A DNA stretch of 64,000 nucleotides, from positions 1,184,001 to 1,248,000 of the forward strand of contig OZ252243.1 in assembly GCA_965249555.1 (NCBI GenBank), in the 5' to 3' direction. The position numbers were made by a program, and so were the translations under genes. This DNA is from Nitrosopumilus sp. GTDB lineage: Archaea > Thermoproteota > Nitrososphaeria > Nitrososphaerales > Nitrosopumilaceae. Positions 354 to 53,875 of the stretch are shown here, piece by piece (position 1 is the stretch's first letter; each line of letters opens with the position of its first letter). The notes beneath the pieces are model-generated. The model worked only from the letters and a program-made list of their open reading frames with translations. It ran no database searches and had not been told where the DNA came from.

Positions 354-441
354 GTTGTGATTTTTGCTGTTATGATTATAATTGTTTGTGGTGCGAAAGT
401 CCTGTTAACTTTGTGGGTGTATCTTCTTCGTGTTTACACTG

Positions 442-492
442 TAAATTCTTAGGGACATTTCATTTTCTCTCAAAATTCTGTAAACTTGGGGA
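442..492. repeat. 51-bp dispersed repeat, copy 1 (inverted copy at 16807-16857)
   Basis: TAAATTCTTAGGGACATTTCATTTTCTCTCAAAATTCTGTAAACTTGGGGA is the exact reverse complement of 16807-16857. Confidence 0.9.
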
Positions 493-569
493 CATGAAAA
501 TCTGATCAGTATGTGCATTTATCTAGATCGATATAGAATATTTCTTCACTGATTTCGGATTTTACTGAT

Positions 570-1067
570 TTAATTATTAAAAAAATGACAGATAAGAGTT
601 CCAGATAACGAAATCACAGAAATAATCATACAAATTAATGCTATTCGTAAATATCTAAATTTTTCACTTTGAATATCTGCTATACTGTAAATATTATCTA
701 AAAAATCTTGTAATATGTTTTCGACAGTCATCATTTGTACCCTTTTTCTATATTCTTCTTTTGTTTGTTGAGTTATAGATTTGTAAAAAATTATACTTTC
801 AAATTGAGTTTTTTGAGTAATTCTAGGAAAGATGACTAGGAATGAGAAAAAAATAGTGGCACTCAGGAACCCTATCGTGGTTATTAATCCAAATATAAGA
901 TATTTGTCCAAATTTATTTTCTCAGAAAACACTAAAAGACCCATGATGATTCCTGCTGAACCTAAAATCAATCCTGCCTTTGTGTCTGCAAAATTTATCA
1001 GATCTACATTATGTTGGAGGATTGATTTTACAAGTTCAATTTTTTCATCCATTGTATCTTTACTCAT
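570..1067 (-). CDS. pycTM: Pycsar-type transmembrane effector (PycTM/DUF5706-like)
   Basis: NFADTKAG motif, two TM helices, FPR...SIIFY..I, K.R.LR.A and a C-terminal TM; coupled to the upstream cyclase (TAATG overlap). Confidence 0.8.
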   Translation of the reverse strand: MSKDTMDEKIELVKSILQHNVDLINFADTKAGLILGSAGIIMGLLVFSEKINLDKYLIFGLITTIGFLSATIFFSFLVIFPRITQKTQFESIIFYKSITQQTKEEYRKRVQMMTVENILQDFLDNIYSIADIQSEKFRYLRIALICMIISVISLSGTLICHFFNN

Positions 1068-1798
1068 TAATTATATCCATTCCAATGTGCACTATAATGA
1101 TAAAATCTATACTTTTTGTTAGTTGCAATATCCACCCACTCAAAGTCATCTCTATTGTTTTGCATAGTGCAATACGATTGTTCCATTTGAGATAATTCCG
1201 AATATACAGAATCACCTAAAAATATTTGATGCTCTCCAGCAAATTCTTCTAATTGTTTTGCTATGCTTACTTCATTACCAACTAAAGTTAATTGATTCAT
1301 TCCTTGTACACCTACACGTGCAACCCATATGTTCCCATAATCTAATCCAATAGAACATGAAAAACGAGGTAACTTTATTGAGTCAAGATATGCATTTATT
1401 GCATAATTAATTTCAGTTAAAATTGTCAATCCACAATCTATTGCGTTTGAAATTGCTTTTTCTTTACTTATTCCCACTCCAAATAAGGCTGTAATTCCAT
1501 CTCCAACATATTTTTCTATGAATCCATCATAATCTCTGATTACATAAGTTAATTCTGAAAGATAAATGTTAAGAAATCGTAGTTTCTCATCATTAGATAA
1601 ATTCCCTGTTAGTTTTTTAAAATTATTCATATCGATATGCATTACTACAAGTCCAAATTCTTTGGCTTCCCCTAATCTCATGTCATCAATTTTTGGTATA
1701 GTTTTTCCTGATGTAATGTCATCAAATTCTCGATCACAATCAAACTGTTTTACTCTATTTTTGGCTTCAATTATTGTGTTATTATTATTCCATGGCAT
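1067..1798 (-). CDS. pycC: Class III nucleotide cyclase, PycC-like
   Basis: HIDMNNF (first metal Asp), EKYVGDG (second Asp), SIGLDYG, LVGNEV; operon with a PycTM-like gene. Confidence 0.8.
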   Translation of the reverse strand: MPWNNNNTIIEAKNRVKQFDCDREFDDITSGKTIPKIDDMRLGEAKEFGLVVMHIDMNNFKKLTGNLSNDEKLRFLNIYLSELTYVIRDYDGFIEKYVGDGITALFGVGISKEKAISNAIDCGLTILTEINYAINAYLDSIKLPRFSCSIGLDYGNIWVARVGVQGMNQLTLVGNEVSIAKQLEEFAGEHQIFLGDSVYSELSQMEQSYCTMQNNRDDFEWVDIATNKKYRFYHYSAHWNGYN

Positions 1799-2238
1799 AT
1801 GCGTAGAGTAAAACTATGTTCTTAATTAGTATGAGTCATTAGTATTCAATCTTTTAAAAAATTGAAATATGAACTTGTATACAAATTATCAGAAATTGTT
1901 TAATGTGTTTAGAGGCCACTCTTAACATGGATACTATTGAAAATAAGAAAGGTCCTAATGGAGAATCCAGCAAAAAGTCAGGTAAACCATCAGGCCGATA
2001 GAGCTGGAATTGAGATTAAAGGGGATAACAAATGGTTAACCATAATCCAAAACGCCTCACTCTATAATTAAAATTCTATTAGAATAGTAAAATAGTTATA
2101 TGATTATTCTGTGTATCAAAATTAACTTGAGTTTGGCTTGTCTTTGCCTGTGATTTGCTATCACAATTAAGACAAAAAATGAAGCCTTATACTCCTATCG
2201 GGCATAAGGTAGATTCTTTTTATTTTAAAAAAATTAAT

Positions 2239-2321
2239 GCTACGGTACGCAAGTCTGGTATGCGGGAAGACTTCTAATCTTCTGCCCGATAGGTTCGGGG
2301 ATTCGAATCCCTCTCGTAGCG
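2239..2321 (+). tRNA. Class II (long V-arm) tRNA-like gene, anticodon TCT (Arg) on a Ser-like body
   Basis: Acceptor GCTACGG/TCGTAGC, D-stem CGC/GCG, anticodon arm GAAGA-CTTCTAA-TCTTC, 14-nt variable region, TTCGAAT loop with an A53-C61 mismatch. Confidence 0.75.
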
Positions 2322-2625
2322 AGGGGTTCTGCATGGTTACGTAACGCAATGGTAGAGGCTGCAAATACTACAGTACGATTTGATGAAAGAATGGAATCAT
2401 TCTATTTCAGAATTACAAAGAGAAGAAAACAAAAGTGGCAGCTGCAAGACCGGATGCTTGCAATAATCCGGGCACATGCTAACTCTGAAAGTGTATCGTA
2501 CACAAAATCATGAACTGACACAACGAAAGTATAAGATGCAAGGCATATCTGAGATGTCCTGATTCAGCAAAGCACGCTAGGAAGTGTCCTCAGTAGGGTT
2601 GGAGACGATTTCGTATGGGAGAATC
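2321..2625 (+). mobile_element. IS110 (type B) 3'/right-end fragment
   Basis: Encodes RGSAWLRNAMVEAA; near-identical to the reverse complement of about 53876-54187 and to 6277-6497. Confidence 0.85.
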
Positions 2626-2922
2626 TTATAGACCACTATTTTTATTACCATTAGATGTTACAGTACAAGTTATTTTATCATCATCACCAGTATCTAGATT
2701 ATTTTTCCAATGCAGTGGAATTAAATTTGAGATATTATTTGACCCACCTTTTGATTCAGCTTTTATATGATGGATTTCCCAACCAAAATCTGATTGCCTA
2801 TCTCCATGTGCAGAAAGTTTTATCCATGCTCCACACACATCTTTTCTAAAATCGTTTTTATCATTATTTTTATCTATCTCTCCGTTACACCAGACATCTG
2901 TTTTGATATCGTTATTGGACAA
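2626..2922 (-). CDS. Small HNH endonuclease
   Basis: GWEIHHIKAESKGGSNNISNLIPLHWKNN HNH motif. Confidence 0.8.
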   Translation of the reverse strand: MSNNDIKTDVWCNGEIDKNNDKNDFRKDVCGAWIKLSAHGDRQSDFGWEIHHIKAESKGGSNNISNLIPLHWKNNLDTGDDDKITCTVTSNGNKNSGL

Positions 2923-3174
2923 TATGGTGAATAATGAATTATCATTATTAAGTGTAATACATTTACATCTTAAGATCGTCTTAACTAATTTTCCGTTCTC
3001 TTACAATTCTAACGCAATATGATATACCGTGAGATTTATTGGCAAATCTTCCGTTTTTTACTTCATGATCTACCCACTTTAGGAGTTCATAATCTATTGA
3101 TATGGCTGTCTTGATTTTCGTACACAAAGTTATACCAAATATAACTTAAATGCGGTAAAACTAGGTTATACTTT

Positions 3175-4947
3175 ATGATTAAATTTGTCTTTATTTTGTT
3201 AATTACCATTACATTTATTCCAGCATTTGCTGATAGTCATCCAGTTTCAAGGGATTATTTTTATGAATGGAAAGAATGGGCATATGATATATTTGATTGG
3301 TATAAAAATCAAATATCAACACTTGAATCTGAAAATGAAAAATTAAAGCTGCAGATTGCACATTATCAAAATGAACCAAATTATAACGATCCTGATTATG
3401 ATACCCATTCAAAATATCTAACACCAGAACTAATAACACAACAACAAGAACAGATAACACAAGATCAAAATAATGAAGATATGAGAGTTGTTTATTATGA
3501 TAATGGAAATATTAAACAGATTTTTGATAGTGATGGATTTTTAATTGTTGAGTATTATGAAAGTGGAAGTTTTAAGTCTTATTTTAATGAATTTTATAAT
3601 GATGAGATAATTAAAAAATATAGTAAAACTGGAATAGAAGAAACATTTGAGAATTATAAACAAGAAAAACAACAAGATGGTTTGTTAGATGGTCAAGCCT
3701 TAGATTCTAATGGAAATCTTGTATTACTTACTGCAGAATCTCAATATGCACATCATCTAAAAACATTAGAATTAAATGAAGAAAGAGGTATGGGACCTTT
3801 TCATGATGGTTTTAGGTTTGGACCAGATAGTTATTATGACAAATTATGTGAAGATTCAAACAGAAATTGGATAATACCAACCATTGAGTTAGAATTTCCT
3901 ACATCTCAGACTTTGGGAAATACAGAATACATCTATCATATGCCAAATGAGAATGAAATTGTAGTTGAGGGAAGTGTGATTAAATCAAATGATTATGATA
4001 AATATGTTTCAGTCTATTTCAATTTTTTTACTGATGACGAACTGCGTCAAACTGATTTAATTGGAATTACTGTTAGTTCTGGAATAGTTGGCACTGTTTG
4101 GAATAGTGATAATCCTAACAATTTTGGAAGAATATTAGATAAAGATGATGGAAGATTTTCTACAAGTTTCAATAAAAATACTATAGATGAGATATTAGGT
4201 TCTGATCCTGTTTATGACAAACATGTATCTAGTTTTTATAAAATAACAGTGAATTATGATGATCAATGTGGATTTAAAAAGTTTGATTATGTTAGATACA
4301 TTGAAGATATAACACCCACAATAAATGAAATACCAACACTAGAACCAAAGGTAACACCAGAAACAACCAAAGACCTAACACGAATAGAGTATGATGATAA
4401 TGGAAACAAAAAATATTATTATAAAAATAATATTTTGGTTGCAGAGTATTATGAAAATGGAAACTTTAAGGTTCTTTATGATGATAATGGTAATCTAATT
4501 AAAAAATATCCAGTATCTAAACAATCAATATATGAGTCAACTCCAACAATAAATGAAATATCAAAAGACCCATCCGAATCAATTGAAGTCAAATATTACA
4601 AAATACCATTACCATTTAGTAATGGGAATTTTGCTAATGCACATAGAAGCCATGCAGAAGTAATTACAATTGATGTAAATGTTGCTTGTATAGATGGGAA
4701 ATCTTCGTGTTTTACTCCAGATAGAACAGTAATACCAGTTGGTGGGGAGGTTATTTTTGTAGTAAATGATGGTTTTGGACATGTCATTGTTCAAGGAACT
4801 GATAGGGCTAAACCATATGATGGTGAATTTAGAGTAGATAATTTAGTTAGAGGTGGACAGTTTTCACATGTTTTTGATAATGCAGGAGAATATCCATACT
4901 TTTCTCATATACATCCTAATGCAGAAGGTATTGTAATAGTAGAATAA
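3175..4947 (+). CDS. Secreted protein with YwqK/MORN-like repeats and a C-terminal degenerate cupredoxin domain
   Basis: Signal peptide; YYDNGNIK, YYESGSFK, YDDNGNKK, YYENGNFK repeats; C-terminus GEYPYFSHIHPNAEG. Confidence 0.7.
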   Translation: MIKFVFILLITITFIPAFADSHPVSRDYFYEWKEWAYDIFDWYKNQISTLESENEKLKLQIAHYQNEPNYNDPDYDTHSKYLTPELITQQQEQITQDQNNEDMRVVYYDNGNIKQIFDSDGFLIVEYYESGSFKSYFNEFYNDEIIKKYSKTGIEETFENYKQEKQQDGLLDGQALDSNGNLVLLTAESQYAHHLKTLELNEERGMGPFHDGFRFGPDSYYDKLCEDSNRNWIIPTIELEFPTSQTLGNTEYIYHMPNENEIVVEGSVIKSNDYDKYVSVYFNFFTDDELRQTDLIGITVSSGIVGTVWNSDNPNNFGRILDKDDGRFSTSFNKNTIDEILGSDPVYDKHVSSFYKITVNYDDQCGFKKFDYVRYIEDITPTINEIPTLEPKVTPETTKDLTRIEYDDNGNKKYYYKNNILVAEYYENGNFKVLYDDNGNLIKKYPVSKQSIYESTPTINEISKDPSESIEVKYYKIPLPFSNGNFANAHRSHAEVITIDVNVACIDGKSSCFTPDRTVIPVGGEVIFVVNDGFGHVIVQGTDRAKPYDGEFRVDNLVRGGQFSHVFDNAGEYPYFSHIHPNAEGIVIVE

Positions 4948-4980
4948 CACTACTAACAACATAATTCTTTCAATATCTTT

Positions 4981-6214
4981 TGGTCTGGTCCCCTCTAGAA
5001 TGAGAACGTCTACATACACTTTTCAGGGGATCTAGGAGATTCACACTCATGGTAAAGAGCAAATTCACACCTGCAGAAAAATCAAGAATAATTCTTGAAT
5101 CATTAAACACCAACATTGGAACTGCAGAATTGTGCAGAAAGCACAACATTCATCCGCAGACATTCTACTCTTGGAAAGAAAAGTTTGTGGATGGAGGCAA
5201 ATCCGCATTAAACAGCAGGATCTGATGACAATACATGCAAGACATTACAAAAAGAAAATGAGACTCTAAAAAGAATTGTAGGTGAGTTGACCATCGTCAA
5301 TGACACTTTTAAAAAAATGTTGGAGGGACACAAAAGATGATCATTGCAAAGCAACTCACTGCAAAATTGAGTCTGAGAAAATCATTATCATACGTTGGGA
5401 TATCACACAACAAATGGTACCATACAAAATCCCCCCGAAACATTCCACTAAACAAGACCGTATCCCAAATGGTCCAAAAGATTGGAAATGCCAGGCCAAC
5501 ATATGGAACCCGTAGGATGGCTGCAGCCACAGCAAGGGAGCTTGGATTGCCTGTAAACAGAAAGCAGATTCGCAGAATATTCCACAAGCTAGGCTGGATT
5601 GCACCTGCAAAGACCAAAAAAGACATCATGGCATCCAAAAAGAAACTTTTCAAACCGACTGCGCCAAACCAGTTGTGGCAGACAGATATGACATATGTCT
5701 GGTGTGGAGTTGATGGTTGGTGTTACTGCTTTAATGTCATAGATACATTTAGCAGAAAATGGATTTCATACATATTTGATGTAACTGCAAGCAAAGATGC
5801 TGCAACAGAATCAATCATTCATGCAATTGCAACTTCCAATCCGGATTGTGCCAAACTGATTATACGAACTGACAATGGTTCGCAATATGTAAGCCGAAAG
5901 TTCAGAGAAGCAATCCTGCTTTTGGGTGCAAGACAGGAATTCATCTGGCACCATACACCACAACAAAATGGTCATGTCGAATCGTTTCATAAAACGTTAA
6001 AGAAGGAATATCTCTGGCCACACGAGTTTGAAAATTTCCAATCAGCACAAGAATTGCCAAGGCATTTGAGGATTACAACGATTCCAGGATTCACTCTGCA
6101 CTTGGATACATCACGCCAGATGAATTTCTGGAAAAATGGGAGATGAGACATGAATGAGGGTAATTGTATGTAAAATTATGCAAAAAGTGCTCTCATTTAG
6201 TGGGGTCCACTCCA
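4981..6214 (+). mobile_element. IS3-family element, frameshifted OrfA/OrfB
   Basis: TG...CA imperfect IRs (TGGTCTGGTCCCCTCTAGAATGAGA / TCTCATTTAGTGGGGTCCACTCCA); OrfB WQTDMTY, TDNGSQY, NGHVESFHKTLKKE. Confidence 0.9.
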
Positions 6215-6218
6215 CCAA

Positions 6219-6284
6219 TTGCTAGTAATTTTTGATGTTGAAGGTGTTTTATATGATGAAGAATATCTCACTATTCTTTCAGAA
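6219..6284 (+). pseudogene. 5' fragment of a HAD phosphatase (SerB-like)
   Basis: TTG start, LLVIFDVEGVLYDEEYLTILSE (HAD motif I DxEG), then fused to an IS110 fragment. Confidence 0.6.
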
Positions 6285-6497
6285 TTGCAAAGAGAAGAAA
6301 ACAAAGGTGGTAGCTGCAAGACCGGATGCTTGCAATAATCCGGGCACATGCTAACTCTGAAAGTGTATCGTACACAAAATCATGAACTGACACAACGAAA
6401 GTATAAGATGCAAGGCATATCTGAGATGTCCTGATTCAGCAAAGCACGCTAGGAAGTGTCCTCAGTAGGGTTGGAGACGATTTCGTATGGGAGAACC
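6277..6497 (+). mobile_element. IS110 (type B) right-end fragment, second copy
   Basis: Direct repeat of about 2405-2625. Confidence 0.85.
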
Positions 6498-6548
6498 GGT
6501 GTGAAAGATCTTGGCAAATCATATATCTCCAAAAATTTGAAAAAAATC

Positions 6549-9309: not shown

Positions 9310-10635
9310 ATGGATGAAACTGTTCTCAATATTGGATTTGATGATACTGATTCTCCTAAAGGAATGTGTACCACATTTCTAGCATACAAAATTGTTGATT
9401 TACTTCAAAAACAGGACGCTGAATTTCTTGATTTTCCAAGATTAATTCGATTTAATCCTAATATTCCATGGAAAACTCGTGGTAATGGAGCAGTTTCAAT
9501 CAGAATAAAGACTAAAAATCCTTCTAAGATAAAAAATCAAATTAAAAATCTTGTTTCAAGATACTCTGATGTTAAAAATGGGGCAAATCCTGGTTTAGTA
9601 TTTTTTGAAAGTGATGCAATTCCTACTGAGTTTACTAATTTTAGTAACTTAGCTTTGTGGCAATTAATTAATAGAAACAATGCAAAAAAATTTGCCAAAA
9701 AAAATGATCTTGAATTTTTCTATCAAGGAAATGGTCAAGGACTTGTTGGTGCAATTGGTGCAATAGGGTATGATTTTCAAGATCATACCTTAGAACTTTT
9801 AAGTTATCGTAAAAGAAAAAAATTTGGAAAAGAAAGAAAACTTTCTGCTTCAAGTGTAAAAATTATGCAGGAAAAAACTTTGCCAAATACGTTTAATAGT
9901 TTTGATACAAAAAAAGGACGAATTTTAATTACTCCGCATGGCCCTGATCCTGTATTTTATGGTGTTAGAGGTGAAAATGTAAATTCATTATTGTATGCTA
10001 CAAAAATTCTGAAAAGTGATGAAAAATTAGATGGTTACATGATCTTCAAATCTAATCAAGGAACTGGAGATCATTTGAAAAATGAATTAAATTTTGAAAA
10101 TATGAAACCTTATGCTTCTGGAAAAATCACCGGAATTGTATCAGATACACCAAAAATTGTCAAAGGCGGACATGTCTTTTTTAAAATTTTCTCTCAAAGT
10201 CATGAATTTTGGTGTGCAGTTTACAAACCGACAGGAATCTCATCTGTTGCTCTGAATTTGATTAAAGGAGACAAAATATGTGTCGGTGGAGGAGTTCGAA
10301 AGGCATCTAAAAAATTTCCTCGAATCATTAATCTCGAATTTATTGATATCATTCACCTTGAAAAGAATCTTTCAAAATCTAATCCAATTTGCAAAAAATG
10401 TAACAAAAACATGAAATCCAAAGGTCAGAATCAAGGATTTCAGTGTATTCGATGTGGAAAAAAAGCTTCTAAAAAAATAACTATTGAAATTTCAAGAAAG
10501 ATCAGAAAACAACTGTATATTCCAAAAATGTCTGCACATAGACACCTAACAAGACCTTTGCAACGAATTGGAATTTCTAACAAAATCTCAAAATTTGATA
10601 AATCTCTTTCATGGTTTTGCGTTTATAGAAACTAA
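9310..10635 (+). CDS. tiaS: tRNA(Ile2) agmatidine synthetase TiaS
   Basis: GFDDTDS..GMCTT, NPNIPWKTRGNGA, PHGPDPVFYGVRG, C-terminal Zn ribbon, RHLTRP. Confidence 0.95.
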   Translation: MDETVLNIGFDDTDSPKGMCTTFLAYKIVDLLQKQDAEFLDFPRLIRFNPNIPWKTRGNGAVSIRIKTKNPSKIKNQIKNLVSRYSDVKNGANPGLVFFESDAIPTEFTNFSNLALWQLINRNNAKKFAKKNDLEFFYQGNGQGLVGAIGAIGYDFQDHTLELLSYRKRKKFGKERKLSASSVKIMQEKTLPNTFNSFDTKKGRILITPHGPDPVFYGVRGENVNSLLYATKILKSDEKLDGYMIFKSNQGTGDHLKNELNFENMKPYASGKITGIVSDTPKIVKGGHVFFKIFSQSHEFWCAVYKPTGISSVALNLIKGDKICVGGGVRKASKKFPRIINLEFIDIIHLEKNLSKSNPICKKCNKNMKSKGQNQGFQCIRCGKKASKKITIEISRKIRKQLYIPKMSAHRHLTRPLQRIGISNKISKFDKSLSWFCVYRN

Positions 10636-10636
10636 G

Positions 10637-10711
10637 TAGCGGGGAGTAGATTTGAACTACTGATTTGCGGGTTATGAGCCCGCCGGGATGACCTGACTTC
10701 CCCACCCCGCT
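10637..10711 (-). tRNA. Initiator tRNA-Met (CAT)
   Basis: AGCGGGG...CCCCGCT-A with A1-U72; anticodon arm GCGGG-CTCATAA-CCCGC with three G-C pairs. Confidence 0.95.
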
Positions 10712-53755: not shown

Positions 53756-53841
53756 GGTGAGTTTATCTAGAATGGTAAGATGTCGGGCTTATGACCCGAT
53801 TGTTGTAAGAGACATCGTGGGTTCAAATCCCACACTCACCG
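53756..53841 (+). tRNA. Class II (long V-arm) tRNA gene, anticodon TAT (Ile) on a Ser/Leu-like body
   Basis: Acceptor GGTGAGT/ACTCACC plus G73; D-stem ATCT/AGAT; TCGGG-CTTATGA-CCCGA; 17-nt variable region; GTGGG-TTCAAAT-CCCAC. Confidence 0.88.
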
Positions 53842-53875
53842 CATCTTTTCATTCTATATTAATTGAGAGGTCTTA

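Follow-up and report, generated by a model that had tools for sequence, protein, structure and literature searches.

Nematode nev-tRNAs are charged with leucine. They are class II tRNAs bearing the anticodon Gly-CCC or Ile-UAU, according to the part of PMC3333845 drawn upon here. Bacterial allo-tRNAs (Mukai et al. 2017), as presented in the portion of PMC7609411 that we cite, are charged by seryl-tRNA synthetase (SerRS), have long variable arms (V-arms), non-serine anticodons that commonly include UAU and GCG, and a 12-bp acceptor domain of the 8/4 or 9/3 form, and are in some cases linked to transposons or suspected toxin-antitoxin systems. Here we analyze a stretch of 64,000 nucleotides from Nitrosopumilus sp. 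(GenBank assembly GCA_965249555.1, contig OZ252243.1, positions 1,184,001 to 1,248,000 of the forward strand; hereafter "the window", in whose numbering coordinates are given unless they are marked otherwise), in which positions 2239-2321 of the plus strand are a genuine tRNA gene with a class II body and the arginine anticodon UCU. This gene belongs to a rare accessory and mobile tRNA family that has a class II body, mostly arginine anticodons, and a partner hairpin covarying with the variable arm.

On the evidence of the same portion of PMC7609411, allo-tRNAs and the Nitrosopumilus family are alike in their long variable arm, in diverse anticodons that do not match the body, and in a patchy, accessory distribution. 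Unlike the allo-tRNAs, the Nitrosopumilus family is archaeal, its anticodons are mostly confined to arginine, and it has a covarying upstream hairpin, for which that portion of PMC7609411 describes no counterpart. Because its cloverleaf is of the standard 7/5 form, the family falls outside the structural definition of allo-tRNAs, and the likeness to these RNAs put forward in the original prediction holds for the long arm and mismatched anticodon and fails for the 8/4 or 9/3 structure. With the nev-tRNAs, as they appear in the part of PMC3333845 cited, the family shares its class II form, an anticodon that is neither serine nor leucine, and confinement to a single lineage, whereas the nev-tRNAs are eukaryotic nuclear genes with other anticodons and, in that account, with neither an island context nor a matching hairpin. 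No archaeal (including thaumarchaeal) class II tRNA with a mismatch between body and anticodon, and no such case of the 7/5 form, was found in the open-access literature. We tentatively read the family as an accessory decoder of arginine codons that would be charged by way of its anticodon and would use the variable arm as a pairing handle, a reading whose probability we place slightly short of even.

The tRNA gene and its family

The gene is supported by ARAGORN (tRNA-Arg(tct) at 2238-2322), by the Rfam tRNA model (RF00005, 44.5 bits on 2100-2450 against a gathering threshold of 29, E 1.7e-8), by a family model and by stem covariation. It folds as a cloverleaf with a 7-bp acceptor stem (GCTACGG/TCGTAGC, including one G·U) and a 5-bp T-stem. 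The acceptor strand is followed by TA and a D arm, CGCA-AGTCTGGTA-TGCG, and then by G26; the anticodon arm is GAAGA-CTTCTAA-TCTTC with its anticodon at 2273-2275, the variable region has 14 nt (TGCCCGATAGGTTC, 2283-2296) with a GCC/GGT stem, and the T arm is GGGGA-TTCGAAT-CCCTC with an A53·C61 mismatch (2301/2309). The last base is G73 at 2321, and CCA is not encoded. The V-stem is kept in 5/5 intact homologs, so that the long variable region with a stem of its own that characterizes class II is present. A gathering scan of the whole window (1-64000) with Rfam did not list the gene, despite the 15 bits by which it exceeds the threshold in the short scan; as the short stretch passes, the miss is attributable to filters, and speed filters can hide unusual tRNAs.

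Several features of the original prediction are confirmed by these results, namely the cloverleaf with its 14-nt variable arm, the arginine UCU anticodon, and the U that follows GG in the D-loop, which reads GGTA compared with GGATA in 4/4 canonical Arg tRNAs of the genome. The suspicion that G73 might belong to the abutting IS110 element was also well founded: 16 other IS110 copies read ...acaaag/AGGGGTTCTGC across the junction, and since they carry the G, base 2321 can be assigned to the tRNA or to IS110, yet G73 is found in 7/7 family members. The anticodon loop, however, is not one base away from that of tRNA-Ser(GCU), as had been claimed, because the host Ser(GCU) loop is UUGCUAA and differs at two positions.

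Seven related loci are known, five of them in 4/151 Nitrosopumilus genomes and two on metagenome contigs. We refer to the window copy as G000a, to a second copy in the same genome as G000b, to those in other genomes of the genus as G154, G144 and G017, and to those on metagenome contigs as L074 and L075; G155 is a further genome of the genus, with the leader alone. A 152-nt query (leader plus tRNA) matched 24 of the 151 genomes at E<=0.01, and the matches are true in five: the tRNA is present in G000 (two loci), G154, G144 and G017, and the leader only in G155. In the remaining 19/24 genomes there were only 18-34-nt matches, nearly all in an A/T-rich spacer, and these were dropped as non-homologous. 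L074 and L075 were added through a specific pattern scan; from a scan of genome contigs came only a Planctomycetota match, which proved to be a chance hit at a site without a tRNA. R1, a covariance model built from four family members, gives the members 87-100 bits, with the gene at 2239-2321 scoring highest (99.7 bits). The next R1 matches in the genus score 74-75 bits and are tRNA-Ser(GCU) in 5/5 loci inspected; among canonical tRNAs the best are Ser(GCU) and Ser(UGA). R1 searches of 150 other genomes of the order (E<=1e-17) and of 150 genomes of the family (E<=3e-17) returned no member. A viral origin was considered and rejected: two IMG/VR pattern scans gave 9 chance matches (ARAGORN tRNA in 0/9 loci) and 0 matches, PHROG scans of 14 neighboring open reading frames (ORFs) gave only weak HNH matches, and a head-tail-connector next to L074 depends on one weak Pfam match (22.9 bits) unsupported by PHROGs.

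Across four members, 90.6% of the cloverleaf stem cells pair and both sides have changed in 6/24 pairs, giving a covariation score reached by 0/500 shuffles. Compensatory changes occur in all four tRNA stems, and the bases that make tertiary contacts are kept (U8, A14, G18G19, U33, T54-C56, A58). This covariation implies that the cloverleaf is under selection. Two members are damaged. G000b is degenerate, with broken stems and no ARAGORN tRNA, and in G017 (L007 1565-1721) the 33 nt that extend from the anticodon arm to the V-arm are directly duplicated inside the gene. The two copies of the duplication are 41 nt apart and the intervening DNA resembles a decayed T arm plus acceptor strand, the pattern to be expected if an element had integrated into a tRNA gene or if recombination had taken place inside one.

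The anticodon is UCU in G000a (by ARAGORN) and in G000b (read from the sequence), CCU in G154 and G144, UCG in G017 (read from the sequence), GCG in L074, and CAU in L075. Arginine anticodons of four kinds (UCU, CCU, UCG, GCG) are therefore present at 6/7 loci, and serine anticodons (NGA or GCU) at 0/7. GCU itself is found at 0/7 loci, which disposes of the concern that all homologs might carry it. At least four anticodon changes are needed within the family, three of them inside the arginine set, and U33, A37 and A38 are invariant. That six of the seven members switch among four arginine anticodons suggests that the anticodon still matters, as expected if arginyl-tRNA synthetase (ArgRS) reads positions C35 and U/G36. 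The host genome (2.23 Mb, 34.4% G+C, a single contig) has 56 tRNA genes by ARAGORN, or 62 when introns are allowed. As the original prediction proposed to check, a canonical tRNA-Arg(UCU) exists elsewhere, at genome c1250739-1250815 just beyond the window, so that the gene at 2239-2321 is supernumerary; Arg-UCG and Arg-GCG are also present. AGA is the top arginine codon of the genome (20.5 per thousand in long ORFs).

The upstream hairpin and the variable arm

The tRNA is the last part of a module of ~200 bp that also contains two hairpins (hp1 and hp2) and an A/T-rich spacer, all on the plus strand. In hp2 (2184-2210, stem GCCTTAT/ATAAGGT), the loop stretch CCTATCGGGCA at 2194-2204 is the exact reverse complement of TGCCCGATAGG in the variable arm (2283-2293). 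Over the five intact members, 53/53 cells of this match pair and both sides have changed in 5/11 pairs; the covariation score is reached by 0/500 shuffles, and controls in which the match is slid pair at 24-44%. The V-loop differs in each intact homolog (CGATA, ATGC, CTGCG, GTGC, CGACA) and the hp2 complement matches every time. The pair consists of constant flanks and a variable 4-5-nt core, with a spacing between hp2 and V-arm of 89-96 nt. The V-stem includes G·U pairs, and a single G·U is found in the hp2-V match. A complement of the V-arm with zero mismatches is found nowhere else in the genome and is unique in the local loci too. Matches of at least 9 nt in the ±200-nt flanks are seen for 7/56 ARAGORN tRNAs, but an 11-nt match only for the gene at 2239-2321 and one odd 'Gly-ACC', and no comparable partner feature was found among the canonical tRNAs of the genome. 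Duplex energies for cognate hp2:V pairs are predicted to be -25 to -27 kcal/mol (-25.8 kcal/mol in the window copy) versus -9 to -13 for hp2 alone, and predicted cross-reaction between close relatives leads to three specificity groups. In the degenerate genes G000b and G017 the match is partly lost.

These patterns suggest a control or pairing mechanism that has gone unrecognized, and we know of no mechanism that accounts for a covarying match between a tRNA variable arm and a hairpin upstream of the same gene. The nearest parallel is offered by antisense kissing-loop pairs such as plasmid RNA I/RNA II and CopA/CopT, which are hairpins with complementary loops that diverge between relatives and yet stay matched. 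Those pairs arise from the two strands of one locus, whereas here the variable arm of a tRNA would pair with a distinct hairpin located upstream on the same strand.

The other parts of the leader are less constant. Hairpin hp1 (2140-2173, GTCTT..TGTGAT..ATCACA..AAGAC), identified from alignments, is conserved in G154, G144, L075 and G155, partial in G017, and absent from L074 and G000b. Hairpin hp2 is flanked by an A-run before it (2174-2179) and a T-rich run after it, and in G155, where no tRNA is left, its stem shows a compensatory A-T to G-C change. The spacer (2211-2238) is ~5 nt shorter than in G154. From the alignment, and from the sequences that precede 18 canonical tRNA genes, we presume that it contains a TATA box and B recognition element, with a putative transcription start. 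An Rfam scan of 2100-2450 assigned the leader hairpins to no known family. Two other interpretations were rejected by inspection only. Hairpin hp2 has no C/D boxes, as a C/D-box guide would, and no bulge-helix-bulge (BHB) intron, with two 3-nt bulges and a 4-bp helix, can be drawn around 2283-2296 or the hp2:V duplex; the insert in the V region forms a conserved 3-bp stem-loop in place of a BHB.

Genomic setting

The module of the window lies in an insertion of ~6.1 kb (393-6506) relative to G154 and G021, in both of which csl4 and an ADH gene are adjacent (G154 769272 beside 769278; G021 1973524 beside 1973505). The insertion holds a Pycsar system, the tRNA module, insertion sequence (IS) fragments, an HNH gene, a 590-aa protein without a family match, and an IS3-type transposase. 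The Pycsar system (570-1798, minus strand) comprises the PycC cyclase (1067-1798) and the PycTM effector (570-1067), with PADLOC E-values of 3.1e-31 and 7.7e-30 and Pfam support, and the HNH endonuclease is a small ORF of 98 aa (2626-2922, minus strand; Pfam HNH E 6.5e-7, with weak PHROG HNH matches); PADLOC and Pfam thus agree with the position between Pycsar and an HNH gene that had been predicted for the tRNA. In G154 the module shares a 2.84-kb insertion with a methylase-HNH fusion, and the two genes that border this insertion are neighbors in G000. The insertion in G144 measures ~4.2 kb and includes, besides the module, a MunI-type restriction enzyme and an MT-A70 methylase as well as a DDE insertion sequence. 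In G017 the module has an IS3-type transposase on one side and the ATP synthase operon on the other. A remnant of the end of a DDE (IS240/rve-type) element precedes the module in G000a (2021-2055 of the window, plus strand), and in G154 the same end is found equally far upstream of it; G144 has a complete copy, which directly adjoins the 3' end of the tRNA. The insertions compared have nothing in common but the module, and this, with the recurring DDE-IS end, indicates that the module is cargo of small IS-associated islands, several of which have defense genes. No integrase was found at the module-bearing insertions. Across four DNA runs, which come from two studies, the contigs are identical over 1800 to 2347 (X3)-2350 and contain neither joints nor inversions. 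At the left end of the G154 insertion (L031 7338-7400) are two tandem copies of a ~25-nt motif (GGTGTCAAGT..GGTGACCTGG) that may mark the terminus of an element or be bound by a protein.

Downstream, the tRNA 3' end is abutted by the 3' fragment and element end of an IS110-family transposase (2322-2625, plus strand), 5'-truncated and frameshifted as judged from translations and junction alignment, of which the genome has at least 15 near-identical copies. Elements of this IS110 family occur in at least 35 places of the genome, and at least six partial copies begin at query position 83-84 (window ~2405), a shared internal start that suggests breakage recurring at this point or a short derivative of the element. 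Targeting of tRNA-like genes by IS110 was considered and set aside, given that a tRNA is found no more than 600 nt away from 3/35 IS110 3' ends, versus a random mean of 1.1 and maximum of 5, which is not significant. At window 9310-10711, the gene for TiaS (tRNA-Ile2 agmatidine synthetase, with three Pfam domains) stops one base short of a tRNA-Met(CAT) on the opposite strand. The first pair of this tRNA is A1-U72, which is typical for archaeal initiators, and 60 nt past it begins another transposase gene of the IS110 type, broken into two ORFs.

The genome has other unusual tRNA-like genes. A second odd class II tRNA, at window 53756-53842 (plus strand), has a UAU (Ile) anticodon, a 17-nt variable region and G73, and scores 56.5 bits with the Rfam tRNA model; over 74 nt its sequence shows 82% similarity to one of four 'Phe-GAA' long-arm tRNA-like genes of 89-93 nt (genome 181323, 1539985, 1917746, 2195354). 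Neither the Ile-UAU gene nor the four 'Phe-GAA' genes have a reverse-complement match of >=8 nt to the long variable region in the 160-nt upstream flank. UAU is also a leading anticodon of bacterial allo-tRNAs in the portion of PMC7609411 cited above. A tRNA-like family of 72 nt (GGGC...GTCCAC), with many copies to which ARAGORN gives Leu-AAG, Phe-GAA or Ser-CGA anticodons, looks like a tRNA-derived repeat; sites on genome C1 include 92747-92818, 506756-506827, 1841925-1841996, 1886429-1886500, 2185020-2185091, 2194432-2194503 and 2214900-2214971. At genome C1 229375-229465, ARAGORN calls an overlapping tRNA-Arg(tcg) on both strands (229375-229449 plus, 229392-229465 minus).

Charging and function

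Models made from the genome's own tRNAs permit a comparison of bodies. On R2, built from three intron-free Ser tRNAs called by ARAGORN, the gene at 2239-2321 scores 65.1 bits, other family members 42-66, Leu tRNAs 55.5-63.4 and canonical Arg tRNAs 31-38. As the Leu tRNAs match its score, the signal is one of class II and not specifically of serine. The body of this tRNA is class II and not Arg-like. When the anticodon and V region are excluded, its nearest canonical tRNAs are the three intron-free Ser tRNAs, with an identity of 0.60-0.63 as opposed to 0.47 for Arg-UCU. It shares with the host Ser tRNAs (GCU, UGA, CGA) the pairs G1-C72 and C2-G71, G73, the GGTA D-loop (U20), a T-arm of the GGGGG-TTCGAAT type, and V-arm flanks unpaired by 1 nt on the 5' side and 2 nt on the 3' side, but its V-stem has 3 bp and a variable loop, compared with 4 bp and a GCAA loop in the Ser tRNAs, and the anticodon differs. 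With the host tRNA-Arg(UCU) it has in common G73 and an identical 7-nt anticodon loop (CTTCTAA), whereas that tRNA lacks a long V-arm, has A20 (GGATA) and a T-loop ATCGAAG, and differs in its stems.

The tRNA family travels as a ~200-bp module within small, unrelated insertions of a few Nitrosopumilus genomes. On the reading that we tentatively prefer, its class II tRNA would decode arginine codons, the copy at 2239-2321 reading AGA. Amino-acid identity would come from the anticodon, through recognition by ArgRS of C35 and U36/G36. Consistent with this proposal, C35, U36 and G73 are all present in the tRNA, and the portion of PMC9976931 used here gives C35, U/G36 and A/G73 as ArgRS determinants. 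The V-arm would then serve not as a handle for SerRS but as the specific pairing partner of the hp2 loop ~90 nt upstream. This contact, either a kissing loop or an 11-bp duplex, would gate how the tRNA is made, folded, matured or charged. We infer, and do not observe, that hp2 and the tRNA are transcribed and that they pair as RNA, and likewise which amino acid is carried and any link with defense.

A number of observations weigh against this proposal. On R3, the model built from the four canonical Arg tRNAs, the gene scores 25.6 bits, a level that the Ser and Leu controls also attain (11.6-30.2). A20 is absent, although present in 4/4 canonical Arg tRNAs of the genome, and Table 1 of PMC9976931 is blank for archaeal ArgRS determinants. 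One member, L075, has the non-arginine anticodon CAU, and the arginine bias of the family is suggestive only, with a chance of ~0.05-0.1 by a rough count of single-step neighbors. In addition, hp2 precedes the presumed TATA box and may therefore lie outside the tRNA transcript, a conserved promoter was not seen ahead of hp1, and it could be as DNA that the complementary stretches act or are kept matched. Finally, the same portion of PMC9976931 lists a long V-arm, G73, G30-C40 and G1-C72 as archaeal or bacterial-type SerRS determinants, and since all four are present in the tRNA, SerRS could charge it.

Serine insertion, or ambiguous decoding as Ser or Arg, is accordingly the first alternative to be weighed. 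Here SerRS would read the long V-arm, G73 and G30-C40 whatever the anticodon, placing serine at AGA; in its boldest form, the tRNA would be a toxic mistranslator whose V-arm, the SerRS handle, is masked by hp2 RNA until released. The class II body with its higher score on the Ser than on the Arg model, the serine tRNAs that are nearest both by identity and on R1, the determinants just named with the Ser-like unpaired V-arm flanks and the missing A20, the shifts of anticodon among close homologs (CAU included) as in allo-tRNAs, and the adjoining defense genes are all in keeping with this idea. The Leu tRNAs, however, do equally well on the Ser model, the V-stem is one pair shorter than in host Ser tRNAs, and charging that is blind to the anticodon leaves unexplained why six of the seven anticodons stay within arginine. 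We regard serine decoding as unlikely on balance. The Ser-type body of the original prediction survives in part, in that the body is not Arg-like, has the SerRS determinants and lacks A20; the equal scores of Leu tRNAs and the 3-bp V-stem do not support it.

An explanation that dispenses with translation altogether seems to us improbable too, in about the same degree. The hp2/V inverted repeat would work on double- or single-stranded DNA, with the tRNA shape incidental or a relic, and might serve mobile elements as a landing pad or be a recombination or inversion site with matched cores; it might also be a quasi-palindrome whose arms template switching keeps matched. Constant flanks around a variable 4-5-nt core at constant spacing do recall recombination sites that need identical cores, and the duplication in G017 resembles an integration scar; moreover, IS elements adjoin the module in four loci, the module is the sole shared part of the islands, and hp1 and hp2 persist in G155 without a tRNA and with a compensated stem. 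Against these points, the compensatory changes in the four tRNA stems and the retained tertiary-contact bases speak for selection on the folded tRNA, the inverted state is seen in 0/7 loci and the contigs of the four DNA runs have no joints, no recombinase gene is consistently linked, and the G·U pairs in the V-stem and in the hp2-V match fit sense-strand RNA.

The window copy might also be a dead relic, a pseudogene left by IS-mediated rearrangement and without present function in this genome, which we think rather improbable. The G53-C61 pair that closes the T-loop in G154, L074, L075 and G144 is replaced by A53·C61, the 3' trailer has given way to a truncated IS110 fragment with no T-run nearby, the promoter spacer is shortened by comparison with that of G154, and the second copy in the genome is clearly degenerate. 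This copy may thus be impaired, given the mismatch, the IS110-replaced 3' flank and the shortened spacer, and the original view of A53·C61 as a sign of decay is plausible for this copy only, with its IS-truncated 3' flank. Nevertheless, all its remaining stems are intact, the hp2-V match is 11/11 pairs, its R1 score is the top of all, and an A·C at 53:61 need not abolish function. Least probable of all, and to be given little credence, is the idea that the V-arm and hp2, with at least three specificity groups among five intact members, form a private and fast-diversifying RNA-RNA address code that gates a mobile, mischargeable class II tRNA, in its boldest form an RNA-only toxin-antitoxin or abortive-infection device in which loss of hp2 RNA (for example, by viral shutoff of host transcription) would free the tRNA for serylation and thereby put serine at the commonest arginine codon.

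The meaning of the family for its host depends on the amino acid that the tRNA carries. Were this serine, the family would represent natural codon-level mistranslation in an ammonia-oxidizing archaeon, borne on mobile DNA. If it is arginine, as we tentatively prefer, the family shows that a tRNA can retain its long variable arm for something besides recognition by a synthetase. The ~200-bp module would, in addition, provide a compact and testable system for the gating of a tRNA via base pairing.

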